A model generated the notes under the pieces. That model worked only from the letters and a program-made list of their open reading frames with translations, was not told the DNA's origin and searched no databases. Positions 4,228 to 32,753 of a DNA stretch of 64,000 nt are shown one piece after another. This stretch comes from Candidatus Moraniibacteriota bacterium (GTDB lineage: Bacteria > Patescibacteriota > Minisyncoccia > Moranbacterales > UBA1568). Made by a program: the position numbers and the translations under genes. Numbering within the stretch: the first letter of the stretch is position 1; every line of letters starts with the position of its first letter. The stretch lies in NCBI GenBank assembly GCA_963778555.1, contig CAVZUR010000002.1:37817-101816 (forward strand), read 5' to 3'.

Positions 4228-4536
4228 ATGCAGACCATGACGGTAAAGAAGCATTTTAAAATCAGTGGAAAAATTTTCCGCTACACCGTCGAGCCGGCGA
4301 GCTGGTACTTCGTCTATATCGATGATGTTACGACCGCGGCAATCCGGGCGGCCCGGACGAAGACCGTTGGTTTCCAGTATGTGCCGGTCGAGGCGAAGGT
4401 AGGGAAGACGACCTGGCGGACGACCCTGTTTCCGACAAAAGAAGGACCCTATCTCCTGGCACTGAAGGCCAAAGTCCGTCAGGCTGAAGGCCTTCGCGTC
4501 GGCGCGGTGATTCGCTTTACGCTGCAGCTCTTGTGA
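4228..4536 (+). CDS. DUF1905 domain protein
   Basis: 102 aa. The 'TKEGPYLLALKAKVRQAEGLRVGAVI' block matches the DUF1905 family. Confidence 0.55.
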   Translation: MQTMTVKKHFKISGKIFRYTVEPASWYFVYIDDVTTAAIRAARTKTVGFQYVPVEAKVGKTTWRTTLFPTKEGPYLLALKAKVRQAEGLRVGAVIRFTLQLL

Positions 4537-4550
4537 TACAGTGAGAGCAT

Positions 4551-4949
4551 ATGCTTGCATCCAAACCTTCCTTTCGGCAGCTGGCGTTCCTCATCGATTA
4601 CTGGTCGATGCCGCACTTTCTCCTCGGTACGCTCGTCGCGATGATGAGCAGTGTCTTCGGTCAACCCGCGGTGCCGTTTTTTTTCATCACGCTCGCCATC
4701 GCCATTTTGTGGGAACTCGTCGAGATGCGCTTCCGTATCCGCGAAGCCCGGATCAATGTGGCCTCGGACATCATCACCCCGCTCTTCGCCTTTATGCTGA
4801 CTAGATGGATTGTCGGCTCGCAAACCATGACCCAAGAGCAGCACGTCGCGCTCCTCAGCGTGACGATTATCTTCTACGCTTTGGTCAGTTATGCTGCGTG
4901 GAGGGCACGTTACGATGATGACCCGGATTTCCAAGACACGATTGCGTAG
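4551..4949 (+). CDS. hypothetical membrane protein
   Basis: 132 aa with about 4 predicted TM segments and no recognisable family. Confidence 0.5.
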   Translation: MLASKPSFRQLAFLIDYWSMPHFLLGTLVAMMSSVFGQPAVPFFFITLAIAILWELVEMRFRIREARINVASDIITPLFAFMLTRWIVGSQTMTQEQHVALLSVTIIFYALVSYAAWRARYDDDPDFQDTIA

Positions 4950-5252: not shown

Positions 5253-6323
5253 ATGACTCGCACGCTTTCATTGCCACTTATGTCGCGACTACTTCAATAC
5301 GGCAGCGGGGCACTTCTAATCGGCACCGTGATTCTCTGGTCGTACTGGTCTTCCGGAGCTGACGGGACACTGCCGACGTACCGACCCGCCGATAGCGATG
5401 CACCGTCGACCGAGGGGCTTCCGACCGTGAATGCTCCAAACCCAGTCTCGCTCCCGGCGCTCATGGCTAAGGATTATGATGGACGTGATTTCCGGGTGGG
5501 GCGAGTGCTCGACGACAACGCCGCTTACACACGGACCTTTATCACGTACAAAAGCGGTGATCTGACCATTTCGGGAATCATGAATGTGCCAAAAGGGATA
5601 CCGCCCATCACCGGCTGGCCGATTCTCTTCCTCAATCATGGGCATATCGATACAGCTATCTATACCAATGGCCGCGGATTGAAGCGCGAACAGGATTATT
5701 TCGCTCGCCATGGCTACGCGGTGATTCATTCTGATTACCGGAATCATGCCGAATCCGACAAGGATCCGGAAAATGAGTTGCATTTTCGGCTCGGCTACAC
5801 CGAGGATATCGTCAATGCGATCTATGCAGTCCGAGCCGCCCGGCTGCCGTATCTCGATAGTGAGCGGATCGGCATGCTCGGCCACTCGATGGGCGGGGGC
5901 GTGACCCTGAATGTACTCGTCGTCGCGCCAACGCTCGTCGATGCGGCGGTCCTGTTCGCTCCCGTCTCGGCCAACTACGAGCGCAACTATGAACGCTGGA
6001 CGAAACGCGAGAGCGCAACCGGGAAGCAAATCATCGAACGCTATGGGACGCCAGAAGCCAACCCGGATTTCTGGAATGCCATCTCGGCGAAGAATTACTT
6101 CGACCGTATCACGGCCCCGATCCAGAACCATCACGGTACGTTGGATGAGTCCGTCGAGTTGAAATGGTCGGATGAGCTCGAGGGGTGGCTGAAGGATGCC
6201 GACAAGGACATAGAGTATCTAGTCTATCCGGGCGAGCCGCATGAGTTCATCGACGCTTGGCCACTTGTCATGCGCCGCACTCTCGCTTTCTTTGACCGGC
6301 ACGTGAAGGGGAAGCCGCGTTAG
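5253..6323 (+). CDS. alpha/beta hydrolase (S9 peptidase/dienelactone hydrolase-like), N-terminal TM
   Basis: Nucleophile elbow 'GHSMGGG', an N-terminal hydrophobic anchor, and a C-terminal His in 'GEPHEF'. Confidence 0.7.
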   Translation: MTRTLSLPLMSRLLQYGSGALLIGTVILWSYWSSGADGTLPTYRPADSDAPSTEGLPTVNAPNPVSLPALMAKDYDGRDFRVGRVLDDNAAYTRTFITYKSGDLTISGIMNVPKGIPPITGWPILFLNHGHIDTAIYTNGRGLKREQDYFARHGYAVIHSDYRNHAESDKDPENELHFRLGYTEDIVNAIYAVRAARLPYLDSERIGMLGHSMGGGVTLNVLVVAPTLVDAAVLFAPVSANYERNYERWTKRESATGKQIIERYGTPEANPDFWNAISAKNYFDRITAPIQNHHGTLDESVELKWSDELEGWLKDADKDIEYLVYPGEPHEFIDAWPLVMRRTLAFFDRHVKGKPR

Positions 6324-13282: not shown

Positions 13283-13705
13283 ATGACCGTCGCGAAAGTT
13301 AGTAAGCCGTCGCAGTTCACCGCGCGTATCAAGCATGATTTTTTCATCCACCCGATCGGGCAAATGACATCAGCGAGCACAATGCTGCTCTTGAAAGCGT
13401 TCAATCTAGGCGATTCAGACGCCGAAATGACACATCTGGAACTCGGTCCCAGGAAGAAGATTCCGGTCTGGCCAGTGACAATCGGGGCGATGTGGCAAGT
13501 GCATCAGTCCAGAGACTTCCATGTGCGGGAGCACTATCTTCTTTATCGGAGGAATCCCGCCACCAGAGCCGTGAGTCTCGTGCCGGATACGTATTTTCAC
13601 GGCGTTCGGACCAATCCCGTCGTCAAAGCAGCGCGACGCGCGCTGTCCGCCATCCACGCGGCCAGAACAAAACCAACCACGGCCAAAGCCGCTGCTAAGT
13701 GTTAG
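13283..13705 (+). CDS. hypothetical protein
   Basis: 140 aa. Strong Shine-Dalgarno 'AGAGGAGG' 6 nt upstream, and a hairpin plus T8 terminator after the stop at 13727-13770. Confidence 0.5.
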   Translation: MTVAKVSKPSQFTARIKHDFFIHPIGQMTSASTMLLLKAFNLGDSDAEMTHLELGPRKKIPVWPVTIGAMWQVHQSRDFHVREHYLLYRRNPATRAVSLVPDTYFHGVRTNPVVKAARRALSAIHAARTKPTTAKAAAKC

Positions 13706-13770: not shown

Positions 13771-14535
13771 ATGAGTGCTATACTTTTTCATATGGCTGTA
13801 CTTCGCTCTCGTAACATCTTTGATCCGAAAAGTGAGTCAGCGTTCAAGCTTTCGCGCTCCAAGATCGAGCAGTTCCTGTCTTGTCCACGCTGCTTCTATC
13901 TAGACCGGCGGCTCGGTGTGGGGCAGCCTCAGGGACCTCCCTTCAACCTGAATAAGGCGGTCGACACGCTTCTGAAGAAAGAATTCGATATTCATCGGGC
14001 TGCTTCGACACAGCATCCGCTCCTCGAAAAGTATGGCGTCGATGCACGGCCGGCGGCTCACGAGAATCTCGATATCTGGCGCGAGAACTTCCAGGGCGTG
14101 CAGTTCCATCATCTACCAACTAACTTCATCATCACAGGCGCGATCGATGATTTGTGGATCAATTCGCGAGACGAGTACATCGTGGTTGATTACAAAGCGA
14201 CGAGCAAAAATGAAGTGATTGATAAATTGAACGACGGCTGGCATCACGCGTATCGTCGTCAGATGGAGATTTATCAATGGCTCCTCAGGGCGAACGGCCA
14301 CACAGTTTCGTCGACGGGCTACTTCGTCTACTGCAATGCGGGGACGGACCACGAGGCGTTTGATGCGCGGCTCGAATTCGATATTCATCTCATCGCGTAT
14401 GAGGGGAATGACGATTGGGTCGAAGGTGTCATCTATCGCGCAAAAGAGTGCCTCATGGCAGACCAGGCGCCGGATGCGGCTCCTACCTGCGATTTCTGCG
14501 TCTATGCTGGCGCTCGAAGGGAGCGGGGCATATAA
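13771..14535 (+). CDS. PD-(D/E)XK nuclease family protein with Cas4/AddB-like Fe-S cysteines (DUF83-like)
   Basis: Motifs 'GAIDDL', 'EYIVVDYKA' and 'QMEIYQWL' (QxxxY). Cys pattern CPRC at the N-terminus and C-x12-C-xx-C at the C-terminus. An alternative GTG start lies at 13699. Confidence 0.65.
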   Translation: MSAILFHMAVLRSRNIFDPKSESAFKLSRSKIEQFLSCPRCFYLDRRLGVGQPQGPPFNLNKAVDTLLKKEFDIHRAASTQHPLLEKYGVDARPAAHENLDIWRENFQGVQFHHLPTNFIITGAIDDLWINSRDEYIVVDYKATSKNEVIDKLNDGWHHAYRRQMEIYQWLLRANGHTVSSTGYFVYCNAGTDHEAFDARLEFDIHLIAYEGNDDWVEGVIYRAKECLMADQAPDAAPTCDFCVYAGARRERGI

Positions 14536-14576
14536 AATAAATAAAAACGGGCCGCATACTTTTCAATATGGGCCCG
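14532..14576 (-). terminator. rho-independent terminator (minus strand)
   Basis: Read on the minus strand, CGGGCC...GGCCCG forms a 6-bp GC stem followed by TTTTTATTTATTTT. The T-tract overlaps the stop codon of the convergent nuclease gene. Confidence 0.6.
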
Positions 14577-14598
14577 AGAAGTGGGGTCAGATAAACAA

Positions 14599-14844
14599 CT
14601 AGATGGGGAGCCGGAGCTGCTCCTTGGGTACGGCCACACGGGTGCGTTGCATCTTGGACTTTACAAGATCCTGAATGATTCGCCGATGTGCCAAGTAGCC
14701 GTCCGTGAAGGGGATTACCTGGTGCGGTCGAGCCGCTTTGGGAAACACCTGTTGAAACACGCTAACGTTGAAGACCGGCCCCATCCGCGCGATGACAGCA
14801 TCGCGGATCGTGTAGTAGTACTCAGGGTGATTGCGCAGAGACAC
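14599..14844 (-). CDS. hypothetical small protein (81 aa), orphan minus-strand gene
   Basis: GTG start preceded by 'GGAGG'. Its own TTGACT-17-TATAGT promoter (14882-14910) and its own rho-independent terminator (14532-14576) flank it. No homology recognised. Confidence 0.5.
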   Translation of the reverse strand: MSLRNHPEYYYTIRDAVIARMGPVFNVSVFQQVFPKAARPHQVIPFTDGYLAHRRIIQDLVKSKMQRTRVAVPKEQLRLPI

Positions 14845-14881
14845 AGTATCCTCCAGTGGTTTGTAAGTTTACGATGCTAAT

Positions 14882-14910
14882 ACTATACACCATCTAAATA
14901 ATAAAGTCAA
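14882..14910 (-). promoter_or_regulatory. sigma70-type promoter TTGACT-17nt-TATAGT for the orphan small gene
   Basis: On the minus strand the -35 TTGACT is at 14910-14905 and the -10 TATAGT at 14887-14882, 17 nt apart. Confidence 0.55.
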
Positions 14911-15051
14911 CCCCGCTAGAAGTAAGTCCGGCCCGTCTTGTCATCTGCGATAAGTATGGGCCTGCGTACGTATCCACTGGACACACGTGGTTGGTTTGCC
15001 ATACTGTGACCGTGACTTCCGACGGGATCAAAGAGTGTATGATACCCATTC

Positions 15052-16323
15052 ATGACCCACCTTTGGCAGAAGAAAATCAGTCTCAAACACTTTCTGAAAG
15101 AAAACACGCTGCCCGAAATTCCAGGGGTCTATTTTTTCCTGGGAGCGGGGGATGAGATTTTGTATATTGGCAAGGCAACCGTGCTCGCCGACCGGGTGAA
15201 GAGTTATTTCGGCCCGGACCTCGAAGCGACACGCGGGCCGAAGCTGATCCTTATGCGCGAGCGTGCCATCGCGATTGCTTGGATTGCGCTCGACTCAGTG
15301 CTCGAAGCGCTCCTGTTGGAGGGCCGACTGATAAAAAAATACCAACCAGCTTACAATTCGGATGCCAAGGATGACAAGAGCTACAACTTCGTGGTTATCA
15401 CCAAAGAAGCGTATCCTCGCATTCTGCTCGTGCGCGAACGCGATATCGAGACGGGGAAGTTCACGTTTCCCATCAGGGAAACATTTGGTCCCTACACGCG
15501 CGGCCAAGCGCTCCACGCAGCTCTCAAGATTGTGCGTCAGATTTTTCCGTATCGTGACAAATGCGTCCCGTATGCAGAGCTCACGCAGGAGCAGCGGAAA
15601 AAATCGCGGCCTTGTTTCCATGCCCAGATCGGACTTTGTCCCGGCGTCTGCGCTGGAACGGTAACGGCGGTGGGATATCGAAAGACCGTGAAGCGCATTG
15701 CACTCTTCTTCGGCGGCAAGAAAGCGCATCTCGTAAAAAATCTCGAGCGTGAAATGAAAGTTGCCGCCAAGGAACTGCGATTCGAGGAAGCGAATGAGAT
15801 CAAGAAGCTCTTGTTTAGTCTCGGCCATATCCGCGATGTCGCATTGATGAAGGCCGATCGCGAGGAAGGTTCAGCGGCGCGGATCGAGGCGTATGACACC
15901 GCGCACCTCCAAGGCGAAGCAACGGTCGGTGTCATGACGGTGGTGCAGTACGCGCTGGCGAAGAAAAGCGAATATCGGCTTTTCACGCTCCGCAACGCTC
16001 ATGGCGGCAACGACTTGTCGGCGCTTGAGGAGATTCTGACGCGACGTCTGGCGCACGGCGAATGGCCGTTGCCTGAGCTCATCGTGGTTGATGGGCCACT
16101 CTTGCAGTCAGATGTCGCGACGCGGATCCTGAAAAAAAAAGGTCTGACAATCCCCGTTGTCGGCGTAGTGAAAAATTCCAAGCACCAGCCTGATCGAATC
16201 ATCGGACCGCGCGGACTCGTGAAACGTTTTGAAAAAGACATCCTCTTCGCGAATGCCGAAGCGCATCGTTTCGCGATTGGTTTCCATCGGAAGAAGAAAC
16301 GCGAATCTTTTCTTCAAGGCTGA
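15052..16323 (+). CDS. uvrC: excinuclease ABC subunit C (UvrC), short form lacking C-terminal (HhH)2 domain
   Basis: GIY-YIG 'PGVYFFLGAGDEILYIGKA', Cys motif 'CPGVCAG', a UVR domain and the RNase H-like domain 'RIEAYDTAHLQGE'. The protein ends after 'FHRKKKR', and no HhH is encoded in any frame downstream. Confidence 0.8.
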   Translation: MTHLWQKKISLKHFLKENTLPEIPGVYFFLGAGDEILYIGKATVLADRVKSYFGPDLEATRGPKLILMRERAIAIAWIALDSVLEALLLEGRLIKKYQPAYNSDAKDDKSYNFVVITKEAYPRILLVRERDIETGKFTFPIRETFGPYTRGQALHAALKIVRQIFPYRDKCVPYAELTQEQRKKSRPCFHAQIGLCPGVCAGTVTAVGYRKTVKRIALFFGGKKAHLVKNLEREMKVAAKELRFEEANEIKKLLFSLGHIRDVALMKADREEGSAARIEAYDTAHLQGEATVGVMTVVQYALAKKSEYRLFTLRNAHGGNDLSALEEILTRRLAHGEWPLPELIVVDGPLLQSDVATRILKKKGLTIPVVGVVKNSKHQPDRIIGPRGLVKRFEKDILFANAEAHRFAIGFHRKKKRESFLQG

Positions 16324-16484: not shown

Positions 16485-19293
16485 ATGCCTGGAAAAAAGA
16501 GTGTCATCGAGATACGCGGAGCCCGGGTGAACAATCTGAAGAACGTGGACATCGACATTCCGCGCGATTGTCTCGTCGTTATCACCGGACTGTCGGGATC
16601 TGGGAAATCATCACTCGCTTTCGATACGCTGTACGCCGAGGCCAACCGGCGTTATGTCGAATCACTCTCGGCCTATGCGCGGAACTTCATGGAGGGCTAC
16701 GACAAGCCGGATGTCGATACGATAAAAAATCTTTCTCCGGCCATCTCGATCGACCAAAAGAGCGTCTCACGGAGTCCACGTTCGACGGTCGGGACCATGA
16801 CGGAAGTCTACGATTTTCTCCGTCTCCTCTTTGCCAAGGTCGGGAAGCCGCACTGTCCGAAATGCGGCCAGACGCTCTCGCGCAAGACCGCCGTAACCAT
16901 CTTGAATGAAATTCTGGCGCTGCCGAACGAATCGAACCTCGTCTTTGCGGCGGAAAGCCCGCTCCTCGCCGGGAAGAATTGGCAGCAGGCCATCGATCTG
17001 GTCGATGACTGGGGCTTTGTGCGTGTTTGGTACCGCGATGCGGCGGTCTTGCTTTCTGAGCTGCGGACGATCGTCGACCTGACGGCTCCGGCCGAGTGTT
17101 TGATTATCATCGACCGGATCGCGCTCGATACTGCCCGACCGGATAAAGAGCGCATGCTCGACTCGATTCATACCGCCTTTCAGACCGGTCAGGGTGTGAT
17201 GCGACTCTTGGCGGACGGGGAGCATTTTCATAATTACCATGAGCGCTATCGCTGCGAGGTCTGCCAGGTCGAGCTCCCGGAGTTTTCACCGGCGCACTTC
17301 TCGTTCAATAATCCCGAGGGTGCCTGCCCGACCTGCAGCGGCTTGGGCGTGACGTTGGAATTCGACCCGGCGCTCGTCATCCCGAACGATATGCTGTCGA
17401 TCTCCGAAGGGGCTATCCGTCCATGGAGCAAGATGAACAGCGATCGGGGAAATGGCAACGGTCCGATGGCACTCTTGCGGGAGATGGCAAAACGCGAGAA
17501 GATCTCGCTCGATATCCCGGTCAAGAAACTCACTGAGAAGCAGCGCGAGTATATCCTCCGTGGGGATGCAAAGCGTGATCTGGCGGATGAATTCGGTTTC
17601 CCGGGTGTTCTCGGCCTTTTGGAGCGGAAGTATCGCGAGACGAAGTCCGATCACCTGCGAGCGGAGATCGAAACCTTCATGTTCATGCAGCGTTGTCCGG
17701 ATTGTCTCGGGAAGCGGCTGCGCCGAGAGTCGCTTTCGGTCTTTGTGGGCGAGCGGAATGTCAGTGATTTTGTCAATCTTTCTATTGAAGAACTTATTGG
17801 ATTCTTCAAAAAGCTCCGGGGTACGCTGCTCCAGAGCGGGGAGGAGAAATCGCTCGTTGATCCATTGTTCAACGAGATGGAGATGCGGCTCACGGCCGTC
17901 GATAAGGTCGGTCTCGGCTATCTCTCGCTGTCGCGGAGCGCGGATACCCTTTCTGGCGGCGAAGCTCAGCGGATCCGGCTTTCGGTCCAGATCAAGTCCG
18001 GCCTTTCGGGCATCATCTATGTCCTGGATGAGCCGTCGGTCGGGCTGCATAGCCGCGATACGGACCGGCTCATCCGCGCGCTCGAAGAGCTCCGCGGTGC
18101 CAATAACTCACTCGTCGTAGTCGAGCATGACGTCTCGATTATGCGCAAAGCGGATTGGATCATCGATCTCGGACCCGGTGCTGGGAAAGAAGGCGGGGAG
18201 ATGATTTTCTCCGGCACCCCGGAGAAGCTGATGAAATCAAAAATGCTGACGGGACAATACCTCTCCGGCAAGCGTTCGGTCGTGAAAAAGGAGTCCCCCC
18301 GCCAGGGATCCGGCCGAGTCCTCTCGATTGAGGGCGCAACGGAACATAACCTGAAAAATGTGACCGTGGATATCCCGCTCGGGAAATTCGTCTCGGTCTC
18401 AGGCGTTTCGGGATCTGGCAAATCGACCCTGGTGCACGATATCCTCTCACGGGCGCTGGCCAGGCATTTTTATCAGGCCCGAACGGAGCCCGGCGCACAT
18501 CAAGCAATCAAGGGCATCGAGCACATCGACAAAGTGATCACCGTCACGCAGGATCCGATCGGGCGGACGCCGCGTTCCAATGCCGCGACGTATACCGGTA
18601 TTTTCAGTCTCATCCGGGACGTCTTTGCCGCGACTCCCGAAGCGCAGAAGGAACGGTATTCTGCTTCATATTTCAGTTTCAATATGCGCGGCGGACGCTG
18701 CGAAGTCTGCCAAGGCGGTGGATTGAAGAAAATCGAGATGTATCTCCTGCCCGGATGTCTATATTTCATGTGAGGTCTGCAATGGAACGCGCTACAACGC
18801 GAAGACGCTCGCAATCCAGTATCGGGGTATGCATATCTCCGAGGTTTTACGCATGACGGTCGCTGAGGCGCGGCACTTCTTTCTTGACCAACCGATGATC
18901 GAAGAGAAGCTCCGAGTTCTCGAAGAAGTCGGTCTCGGTTATCTCGTCTTGGGCCAGAGCGCACCTAACCTCTCGGGCGGAGAGGCGCAGCGTATCAAGC
19001 TCGCGACTGAACTCGCCCGGAAATCGACAGGCAAGACCCTGTATATTCTCGATGAGCCGACAATCGGACTGCACTTCGAAGACGTCCGGCGTCTGTTGGA
19101 GGTGCTCAACGCGCTGGTGGACAAGGGGAATACGGTCCTGGTCGTCGAACACAATACCGATGTGATCAAGGCCTCCGATTGGGTCATCGATATGGGACCG
19201 GATGGCGGTGACCGCGGCGGCATGATCGTCTATGCCGGGGTACCTGAAAAATTGAAAAAAATAAAAGCGAGTTTTACCGGGAAGTATCTCTAA
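16485..19293 (+). CDS. uvrA: excinuclease ABC subunit A (UvrA), frameshifted (ORF fragments 16362..18773 and 18829..19293)
   Basis: Both ABC modules and the zinc fingers are present. The frame breaks at CCC 18750-18752. Reading one base on restores the UvrA-like '[33 protein letters not shown]...'. Confidence 0.9.
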
Positions 19294-32242: not shown

Positions 32243-32479
32243 TTAGTCAGAAAGGAACGAATCGCTGCATTTCAGGATTCGGTTCGGATCGACATGGGGA
32301 GTCAGCGCCAGTGACTCTCGGCAGCACGCGTAGATGTTTTGTTTCGTACCATGGACGGTCACTCGGCATACCCAGCGTTTGTCGTAGCGGTCATGACCGC
32401 AACGGAGGCATGGATTTGACGATTGCGTCAACGGCATGCCTAGAGCTTTCAGATCCTTCCGATCAGCACCTTCAAACAT
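32243..32479 (-). CDS. hypothetical Cys-rich small protein (78 aa)
   Basis: ATG at 32479 with a consensus Shine-Dalgarno 'AAAAGGAGAGAACT-ATG'. It has 5 Cys, 'CLRCGH...CRV...CC'. No family recognised. Confidence 0.45.
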   Translation of the reverse strand: MFEGADRKDLKALGMPLTQSSNPCLRCGHDRYDKRWVCRVTVHGTKQNIYACCRESLALTPHVDPNRILKCSDSFLSD

Positions 32480-32753
32480 AGTTCTCTCCTTTTCAGTTGG
32501 GAATGAACGAAAAAACCGGTTCCTTGTGGGAGACCGGCTTCTTTTTGTCCTCGAGCTGCATTTCCTATAGGCATTCAAGAGCAAAAACAAATCGGTCTCC
32601 CTTCTTCCAAAAGAAGAAGGCAAAAATCGAGCGAATCAACATGGACCGATATGTCTGCATATGGAAAAAGTATACAAATCTCGCCCGACGGTGTCAAACG
32701 GCCAGCGAGGTGCTACAATGAGTGCTGTTTACTTCCTCACTGCGTAAGTCCCA

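Follow-up and report, generated by a model that had tools for sequence, protein, structure and literature searches.

In a general bacterial arrangement, a small autoregulator is transcribed divergently from the operon that it controls, and the two share an overlapping control region. Clients of the β sliding clamp, such as Pol II, Pol IV, UmuC and Hda, carry a short peptide (Q-L-x-L-x-[LIV] or QLxLF) at an exposed, disordered terminus; the binding consensus has been given as QLxLF or QLxLxL (PMC4564189) and as QL[SD]LF, a variable motif most often found at the C terminus (PMC9690074). In phage Mu, Mor and MuC are a precedent for small DNA-binding factors with terminal clamp-binding motifs, and they link transcription control to the replication/repair clamp (PMC12867686). 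UvrC lacking its C-terminal (HhH)2 domain retains dual incision in vitro, and its impaired 5' incision can be restored in trans by a C-terminal UvrC fragment (PMC10085695). The locus described here resembles each of these systems in part.

The window, a 64-kb stretch of DNA from a Candidatus Moraniibacteriota bacterium, contains a minus-strand ORF (14599..14844) of 81 aa with a GTG start and a TAG stop, oriented opposite to almost all other genes of the window. It is a genuine monocistronic protein gene with the signals for separate transcription. The first-pass annotation placed it between a convergent nuclease gene and uvrC as a complete, compact and self-contained expression unit with its own promoter, Shine-Dalgarno sequence (SD) and terminator, and all of these signals were found and are conserved. 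The -35 hexamer TTGACT (14905..14910) and the -10 hexamer TATAGT (14882..14887), both on the minus strand and separated by 17 nt, score 10/12, the top match between 12 and 17 kb of the window; sites scoring at least 10/12 number 13 in the 64 kb versus 4.1 ± 2.2 expected in Markov-1 random sequence. The promoter recurs at the same position in relatives, with TTGAC invariant in nine aligned loci and the -10 hexamer reading TATAGT, TATAAT or TACAAT. Judged from the promoter position, transcription would start near 14875, giving a short 5' leader (14845..14875, minus strand) that holds GTAAACTTAC at 14863-14872 and the SD GGAGG at 14850..14854, 5 nt upstream of the GTG and likewise recurrent in relatives. 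The leader motif is kept in the close clade, and distant members have CA-rich leaders instead.

Downstream of the ORF lies an intrinsic terminator (14534..14576, minus strand), composed of a hairpin (14548-14576) and a U-tract (14534-14547) that shares 2 nt with the stop codon (14533-14535) of the convergent nuclease gene, an overlap that had been claimed. The hairpin has a folding energy of -18.3 kcal/mol (z-score, -3.2; 0 of 200 shuffles folded equally well) and was missed by a consensus scanner because its stem contains a bulge. Hairpins of differing sequence occupy the same position in four relatives (L001, L003, L005 and L006), and their stems still pair. Promoter, SD and terminator are positionally conserved in nine loci (L001, L003, L005, L006, L009, L012, L013, L016 and L017).

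Among relatives, the encoded protein is under purifying selection (dN/dS, 0.11 to 0.26), and the small gene is therefore not an sRNA gene. Differences in the called frame number 21 to 43 at codon position 3 versus 5 to 26 at positions 1 and 2, and the length is steady at 80 to 82 aa over 65 to 83% identity. That the ORF might be spurious, lying over a conserved noncoding RNA, or that a 99-aa plus-strand ORF (14581..14880) might be the real gene, could appeal to the antisense frame, which likewise reads through without a stop in the window, L001 and L004, and to a product without a known family. These readings are already effectively refuted by the substitution pattern and the constant length, to which are added a stop codon interrupting the antisense frame in L003, conservation of the SD and start codon, a confident AlphaFold2 (AF2) fold from the family alignment and the lack of an Rfam match in searches of the region and the whole window. 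The ORF is also not a pseudogene remnant of a longer protein, as its relatives measure just 78 to 132 aa. Both refutations named in the first-pass annotation were thereby answered in favor of the gene. The earlier description of the unit as lying in slightly lower-GC DNA did not survive: the ORF has a GC content of 57.3% versus a window mean of 55.1% and a GC3 of 72% versus 61 to 63% in neighboring genes, and only the flanking intergenic DNA is AT richer (GC, 41 to 46%).

The gene had also been called an orphan, which it is not: profile searches recovered a small family, with sources mostly labeled Candidatus Moraniibacteriota. An exhaustive profile search of 1.84e9 proteins returned 14 representatives, 10 of them small, a word-indexed profile search returned 21 clusters, and a sister branch was detected by hhalign (probability, 88.7%; E, 2.5e-6). 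Large repeat proteins (P0008-10 and P0014) were rejected as relatives because the match, to query residues 4-30 through tandem 'H-x3-YY-T-L-Q-D-S-V' repeats, is repeat driven, covers only the N-terminal third and involves no Pfam family in common. The statement that the product belongs to no recognized family holds for Pfam, NCBIfam, PHROGs, PADLOC and the PDB: the small protein has no match in NCBIfam, PHROGs, PADLOC or a PDB sequence profile search, and a Pfam search of the window protein and 14 members (E ≤ 1) gave nothing except two chance-level matches. Current databases thus leave the family unnamed.

The product is, as modeled, a strongly basic, soluble three-helix protein of about 80 aa. 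Its pI is 10.7, and those of all members lie between 9.5 and 11.2 (about 10). The AF2 monomer is a three-helix bundle (residues 8-21, 27-41 and 50-71) with a mean pLDDT of 80.3, dropping at the C-terminal end to 55 and then 51 per block of 10 residues. Comparison of the predicted structure with known folds gave no specific match, and comparison with viral folds gave none; weak homeodomain-like matches were obtained, as was a weak and generic match to eS17.

The predicted disordered tail ends in QLRLPI (residues 76-81; codons at 14602..14619, minus strand), which resembles the β-clamp-binding consensus, being the hexamer with I replacing the last L. The corresponding motifs in the sister branch are QLRLPF and QLKLPF (L026 and L030) and QLPLF, the last carried by the L013 and L016 paralogs. 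A strict motif occurs within the last nine residues of 11 of 25 members, nine more end in Qxx[LMI][LIVF], and about five have no convincing motif (P0011, P0013, P0017 and P0029 among them). The linker ahead of the motif varies freely, and conservation within the tail is concentrated on Q76 (95%), L79 (81%) and P73 (71%), with L77, the second motif position, at only 38%. By chance, such a motif would be expected in about 3e-4 of protein tails, and none of 178 proxy proteins carries it there; when the motif was calibrated on other proteins of the window, bare QLxLxL was found inside malic enzyme and a GDSL lipase, and these were taken as chance hits. A conserved hydrophobic C terminus could instead be a protease degron, and this is argued against because the motif is internal in the sister branch.

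As in known clamp clients, the best-conserved residues of the motif in the small-protein family are the Gln and the fourth-position Leu. Unlike those clients, the family has a variable second motif position and a three-helix body of about 70 aa without an enzymatic domain, and it shows no homology to any known client; the likeness of the motif is one of sequence only. Similarly, the small protein shares with Mor and MuC the combination of a small DNA-binding-type protein and a terminal clamp-binding-like motif (PMC12867686), but it has no match to the Mor family or to another Pfam family and no PDB sequence match, is about half the size, has one C-terminal motif rather than two, and is encoded on the chromosome and vertically inherited rather than phage borne.

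The small gene is head-to-head with uvrC(-uvrA) in every locus with readable upstream DNA (the window, L001, L003, L005-L007 and L009-L020), and this adjacency holds even where the other flank differs entirely. In the window, the neighbor on that other flank is a PD-(D/E)XK nuclease gene (13792..14535, plus strand; PF12705; E, 1.3e-14), whose start was placed at ATG 13792 (the mechanical ORF starts at 13699) because its relatives are 247 aa long. The nuclease gene is variable, being present in L001, L002, L006, L009, L010 and L018 and absent from L005, L007 and L011-L016, and lies outside the conserved pair of small gene and uvrC. In every relative the small gene sits in a housekeeping block with genes for a DEAD helicase, a C39-like peptidase, UvrC and UvrA. 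This block is vertically inherited, and UvrC identity across the genomes that share the fixed position is 59 to 86%.

All members come from one lineage, in which the entire block is syntenic, so that the position next to uvrC may reflect common ancestry and carry no functional meaning; the product could then be an unrelated, abundant small basic housekeeping protein associated with the nucleoid, the ribosome or RNA. The near-consensus promoter, strong SD and dedicated terminator, which suggest high constitutive expression, fit such a protein, as does its pI. We nevertheless find this account rather doubtful: the adjacency has outlasted complete replacement of the other flank, gain and loss of the nuclease gene, tandem duplication and element insertions. 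A housekeeping protein would also be expected to have a wider range, yet loci with UvrCs 31 to 55% identical (403 to 482 aa) contain no detectable family member within about 2.5 kb on each side, and the match to eS17 is a weak, generic one.

The adjacent uvrC (15052..16323, plus strand) encodes 423 aa with GIY-YIG, UVR and RNase H-like endonuclease domains and ends straight after the endonuclease domain, with no C-terminal (HhH)2. The same holds for the closest UvrC clusters, all 120 of which are 401 to 495 aa long and lack an HhH domain. The cognate UvrC thus lacks exactly the kind of domain that the small protein recalls, one that is small, basic, noncatalytic, presumably DNA binding and UvrC associated, and the small protein, always adjoining uvrC, might serve in trans as a substitute holding the RNase H-like domain on DNA for 5' incision. 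The rescue of 5' incision by a separate C-terminal fragment gives this proposal a precedent (PMC10085695). It is nonetheless unlikely. UvrCs without HhH are common and occur far beyond the range of the small gene, as the loci with 31 to 55% identical UvrCs and no family member within about 2.5 kb on each side indicate, which weakens an obligatory replacement, and dual incision in vitro does not depend on the domain (PMC10085695). The small protein has no HHH match and a predicted fold of three helices, not two HhH motifs (five helices). Furthermore, the gene is divergent from uvrC and not cotranscribed with it, so simple gene fission does not account for it.

In insert-free relatives the strong promoter of the small gene overlaps a predicted weak, near-leaderless uvrC promoter, whose -35 hexamer lies inside the spacer of the small gene and whose -10 hexamer ends 8 to 9 nt before the uvrC ATG. 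In the window, a -10-like TATGAT (15038-15043, plus strand) similarly ends 8 nt ahead of the uvrC ATG, and a palindromic insert separates the two promoters by about 120 bp. Head-to-head genes, overlapping promoters and a small basic helical product are shared with divergent autoregulators, and a transcription factor without a clamp role is the main rival explanation, a possible if tentative one. Such a factor would bind the shared control region and balance its own promoter against the weak uvrC-uvrA promoter, e.g., as a damage-responsive switch. The GTG or TTG starts that follow a strong SD in the window, L001, L003, L006 and L012 are consistent with such a regulator, as are the three-helix fold with its homeodomain-like matches and a conserved GTAA-N1-2-TTAC inverted repeat that members of the close clade share immediately downstream of the -10 hexamer. 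However, no match to a helix-turn-helix (HTH), ribbon-helix-helix (RHH) or other DNA-binding family was obtained in Pfam, NCBIfam or the PDB, no winged helix is recognizable, and the link between the second and third helices is eight residues rather than the tight turn of an HTH. As an operator, the inverted repeat in the leader is a candidate only and was rejected, its spacing varying and the repeat being missing from distant members. In addition, promoter overlap can couple both genes in cis, by promoter competition, without the protein acting, and an autoregulatory role leaves the conserved tail motif unexplained.

The insert in the window (about 116 nt; 14911..15026) lies between the -35 hexamer of the small gene and uvrC, having inserted precisely at that hexamer. 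Miniature palindromic elements of the Correia/REP type are the comparison class for this insert, and the resemblance is one of features. The insert has partly decayed terminal inverted repeats (CCCCGCTAGAAGT ... ACTTCCGACGGG), which form a perfect 13-nt repeat in L006 and L012. On one side it borders TTGAC (14905-14909, read on the minus strand) and on the other a degenerate copy of it, TTGAT (15027-15031), so that TTGACT doubles as the -35 hexamer and as the right-hand TTGAC of the duplicated target. Sites are empty in close relatives (L003 versus L006 and L030 versus L026), from which it follows that the element arrived after the small gene. The same site also holds an element of a second type, and L006 and L012 have additional copies at a different intergenic position. 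Elements of this kind have the form CCCCGTTA...TAACGGGG. With terminal inverted repeats, a target duplication, no coding capacity (the elements are 65 to 120 nt), empty sites, several intergenic copies and a location in a promoter region, the insert is a MITE/REP-like element, although, unlike Correia/REP-type elements, it is represented in the 64-kb window by a single, decayed copy. A structured RNA or uvrC leader was considered for the insert and rejected, only the terminal stem being conserved and the fold having a z-score of -1.5.

The presence of a mobile-looking element abutting the promoter bears on the suggestion, made in the first-pass annotation, that compact units of this kind are typical of small regulatory, toxin or anti-defense proteins. 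The regulatory part is plausible and enters both the best explanation and its main rival. A toxin, antitoxin or anti-defense protein of a mobile element would fit a small, self-contained gene of no known family, and clamp-binding small proteins can be toxic, as are SocB (PMC9690074) and overproduced MuC (PMC12867686). This origin is very improbable, since the gene is monocistronic with no partner gene, has a native composition and lies at a fixed chromosomal site in a housekeeping block whose UvrCs are 59 to 86% identical. The abutting element is noncoding and later than the gene, tblastn of the small protein against phages and plasmids gave no homolog, and the PADLOC, PHROG and viral-fold comparisons were likewise negative.

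For the function of the small protein, we infer that it associates with DNA, docks on the clamp and is connected with excision repair or with the control of that repair, a reading to which we assign a probability of roughly 0.35. The helical body would bind nucleic acid, most likely DNA, and the protein, associated with DNA and tethered to the clamp, would have a connection to nucleotide excision repair, possibly acting at repair or replication sites. Alternatively, it may be a small regulator that binds DNA and works through the clamp, as the Mor/MuC factors of phage Mu do, in which case its own strong promoter would compete in cis with the uvrC-uvrA promoter. A fuller hypothesis states that a hitherto unrecognized, lineage-specific small DNA-binding protein in Moraniibacteriota docks on the β sliding clamp via a C-terminal QLxLx[ILV] tail, that it couples the clamp either to nucleotide excision repair by a UvrC without (HhH)2 or to control of uvrC-uvrA via overlapping divergent promoters, and that TTGAC-targeting palindromic elements repeatedly rewire the control region; taken as a whole, it is speculative and rather doubtful.

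Bacteria of the candidate phyla radiation have tiny genomes and many unannotated small genes, and to our knowledge almost nothing has been established on how their DNA repair is regulated or carried out. The locus offers a testable target, namely, a small protein that is conserved and linked to uvrC-uvrA in a clade where UvrC is missing the DNA-binding domain it usually has, with a specific predicted partner, DnaN, and a defined overlapping-promoter architecture. Even if no functional reading is true, a family of real small genes that is unnamed in databases is now correctly annotated. The palindromic element may be an early case in which MITE-like elements reshape the promoters of these bacteria and, if the link to the clamp is true, the small protein would be a cellular, nonphage example of a minimal clamp-tethered DNA-binding factor.

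The 81-aa ORF reported in the first-pass annotation is present on the minus strand (14599..14844), with its own expression signals. A promoter scan placed its -35 box (TTGACT, 14910-14905) 17 nt from a -10 box (TATAGT, 14887-14882); the 10/12 match made this proposed promoter the top site across 12-17 kb. Sites as good number 13 in the 64-kb window, versus 4.1 ± 2.2 expected from random sequence matched in first-order composition. A minus-strand leader of ~30 nt separates the -10 box from a GGAGG Shine-Dalgarno (SD) sequence (14854-14850), found, as annotated, five bases ahead of the GTG start. The described terminator was also recovered: a bulged, 12-bp minus-strand hairpin (14548-14576; dG, -18.3 kcal/mol; z = -3.2; 0/200 shuffles equally stable) precedes a U-rich run that enters the TAA of the convergent gene by two bases. 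A simple terminator scan overlooked it because the stem is bulged. The neighbors agree with the annotation: the ORF has a convergent PD-(D/E)XK nuclease gene on one side and a divergent uvrC on the other. The claim of lower GC content failed: the ORF has 57.3% GC versus 55.1% in the window, its GC3 is 72% versus 61-63% in adjacent genes, and AT-richer DNA is confined to the flanking intergenic stretches.

Nearly all credible genes of the window lie on the plus strand, and neither tRNA genes nor Rfam families were detected across its 64 kb. A further isolated minus-strand unit occupies 32243-32700, where a TTGACA-17-TATACT promoter (11/12; 32697-32669) precedes a 126-aa ORF and lies upstream of a 27-nt imperfect inverted repeat (32528-32554/32575-32601). 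This ORF has no Pfam match and its region no Rfam match.

The small gene is a real protein gene, neither an sRNA nor a fragment. Codon alignments with relatives gave dN/dS ratios of 0.11-0.26, with 21-43 differences at third positions versus 5-26 at first and second positions, and the overlapping antisense frame gains a stop in one relative. Promoter, SD, and terminator occupy matching positions in relatives, with stem sequences that diverge yet still pair. Coding-type selection and position-conserved signals therefore argue against both alternatives raised by the first-pass annotation, an sRNA conserved only as nucleotide sequence and a pseudogene remnant of a larger protein; a non-coding locus is extremely improbable. 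By these sequence criteria, the gene appears to be an independently transcribed unit under selection, with a basic, putatively three-helix product.

A search of 5.8 billion proteins returned three non-self homologs (80-82 aa, 68-83% identity). Exhaustive HMMER profile searching of 1.84 billion cluster representatives gave 14 matches at E ≤ 1e-3, 10 of them small proteins (78-132 aa) and four large, and a second profile search gave 21 clusters. The four large proteins of the HMMER search (P0008, P0009, P0010, and P0014; 446-1534 aa) were set aside as relatives, as their tandem repeat alone matches. Each carries 5-7 repeats of ~20 residues, 'H-T-x-x-YY-(T/S)-L-(Q/R)-D-S-V-x-N-M-D-S-I-x-N', without a meaningful Pfam family; the likeness to the small protein's N-terminal HPDYYYTIRDAVIARMG was judged coincidental. 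P0023 appears to be a fusion or an over-called ORF. Where sources named an organism, it was Candidatus Moraniibacteriota with two exceptions, MAGs labeled Undibacterium and Bdellovibrionales, whose labels may be mis-assigned. As first noted, the product belongs to no recognized family: no member matched Pfam, NCBIfam, PHROGs, PADLOC, or PDB sequences, and no homologs occurred in phage (50,697 records) or plasmid (72,556 records) databases. The suggestion that so compact a unit encodes a toxin or anti-defence protein is left unsupported by the PADLOC, PHROGs, phage, and plasmid results and is very improbable.

Among 46 metagenomic uvrC loci scanned, a strong family member was present at all four with a UvrC at least 83% identical. 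Loci with ~60% identical UvrC carry small basic ORFs at the equivalent position with weak family scores; profile-profile comparison linked them to the family over helices 2-3 (88.7% probability, E 2.5e-6), and they therefore probably represent a sister branch. Some relatives' loci hold tandem copies, with a distantly related second paralog of 139-141 aa between uvrC and the small gene (L013, 1649-2068; L016, 1751-2176); each of the two genes has a promoter and terminator, the paralog's promoter being near-identical and its terminator separate. At L015, a 178-aa call (4405-4941) resembles a fusion or over-call of paralog and small gene.

Adjacency to uvrC is retained along with the ORF in relatives' loci, and the two genes diverge in every locus with readable upstream DNA (the window, L001, L003, L005-L007, and L009-L020). 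The adjacent uvrC encodes 413-465 aa, and uvrA is usually next. The opposite flank varies: the nuclease gene is found in some loci only, and cold-shock, DUF456, and rhodanese genes occur instead in L013-L015. That the product is a housekeeping nucleoid- or ribosome-associated protein, its position beside uvrC merely inherited, is rather unlikely. In the window, uvrA (16485-19290, plus strand) is split by a one-base frameshift near 18751, at CTGCCCGGATG; relative to the intact 935-aa UvrA of L009, residues 1-756 lie in frame 3 (88% identity) and 756-935 in frame 1 (95% identity). Either the assembly is wrong here or the NER operon has suffered a genuine inactivating lesion.

In three loci free of the palindromic insert discussed below, the promoter scan found a strong small-gene promoter (10-11/12) and, overlapping it on the opposite strand, a weaker uvrC-side site (9/12). 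The uvrC-side -35 falls within the small-gene spacer, and 8-9 nt lie between the end of the uvrC-side -10 and the ATG of uvrC. No SD precedes uvrC in insert-free relatives, and this spacing without an SD implies that the uvrC mRNA would be essentially leaderless there. RNA polymerase presumably could not occupy both promoters at once; such mutual exclusion would couple the small gene and uvrC in cis, protein action aside.

A block of ~116-120 nt separates uvrC from the small-gene -35 box in the window, L006, and L012. Its ends are terminal inverted repeats of 13 nt (CCCCGTTAGAAGT ... ACTTCTAACGGGG), and a TTGAC duplication flanks it, one copy being the -35 box; of two close relatives, L003 has the empty site and L006 the element. 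The window element (14911-15026; flanks TTGAC 14905-14909 and TTGAT 15027-15031), the sole copy in 64 kb, is decayed, as are its terminal repeats. Elements lie at 5810-5928 and 7599-7700 in L006 and at 4827-4938 and 5853-5917 in L012, including copies at another intergenic site. A second type (67-75 nt), with CCCCGTTA/TAACGGGG ends in common, occupies the identical point in L026 (1865-1931) and L029 (560-626), and L030 is empty. In different lineages, two types have inserted between uvrC and the small gene at exactly the -35 box. The elements (65-120 nt, non-coding, palindromic, CCCCGTTA...TAACGGGG ends, TTGAC target duplication) are conserved only in the terminal stem, and their overall fold is not unusually stable. 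The family is MITE/REP-like and targets, or is tolerated at, the small-gene promoter. In the window the insertion has cost the uvrC promoter its native -35 position; the -10 (TATGAT) still lies 8 nt ahead of the ATG, and the scan placed a promoter-like site within the insert (14978-15005), directed toward uvrC.

All family members are strongly basic (pI 9.5-11.2) and hydrophilic. AlphaFold2, with a 21-sequence alignment, predicted a three-helix bundle (residues 8-21, 27-41, and 50-71; mean pLDDT 80.3) and a low-confidence tail. This putatively disordered tail appears to carry a conserved linear motif, the protein's most informative feature: the preceding linker varies freely (mean column entropy, 2.5 bits), and P73, Q76, and L79 are conserved at 71%, 95%, and 81%. 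In the window protein the final residues are QLRLPI. Of 25 members, 11 have a strict motif of the QLxLx[LIVF] or QLxLF type in the last nine residues and nine others end in Qxx[LMI][LIVF]; sister-branch proteins contain QLRLPF, QLKLPF, and QLPLF. The bacterial beta sliding clamp-binding consensus is QLxLF or QLxLxL (PMC4564189), alternatively QL[SD]LF, mostly terminal and tolerant of variation (PMC9690074, PMC12867686). In 178 proxy proteins from these genomes the canonical pattern has a frequency of 6e-5 per residue and is absent from the final nine residues. By itself it is not specific: two enzymes encoded in the window, a malic enzyme and a GDSL lipase, carry it internally.

Functional claims for the protein are hypotheses. 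The favored one, at a probability of about 0.35, is that the helical body would bind DNA and the tail would dock on the clamp, giving a clamp-tethered factor that takes part in excision repair or regulates it. Mor/MuC of phage Mu, small DNA-binding factors with terminal clamp motifs, offer a precedent (PMC12867686). The main rival, a conventional divergent autoregulator with the clamp uninvolved, is somewhat less probable, and the two are not mutually exclusive. It is unlikely, though with some evidence in its favor, that the protein stands in for a missing part of UvrC. The cognate UvrC does stop right after its RNase H-like endonuclease domain, lacking (HhH)2, and without (HhH)2 5' incision is known to be weakened, a defect that trans complementation can rescue (PMC10085695). 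Against this, clade UvrC is uniformly short (401-495 aa; the window's, 15052-16323, plus strand, and ~120 related protein clusters), and (HhH)2-less forms range far beyond the small gene, to relatives at only 31% identity; the predicted three-helix bundle also differs from the helix-hairpin-helix fold. The family is unannotated and, from the homologs recovered, appears restricted to one lineage. What it combines is familiar in kind, namely a helical domain that is small and basic, a candidate clamp motif, and divergent promoters that overlap.
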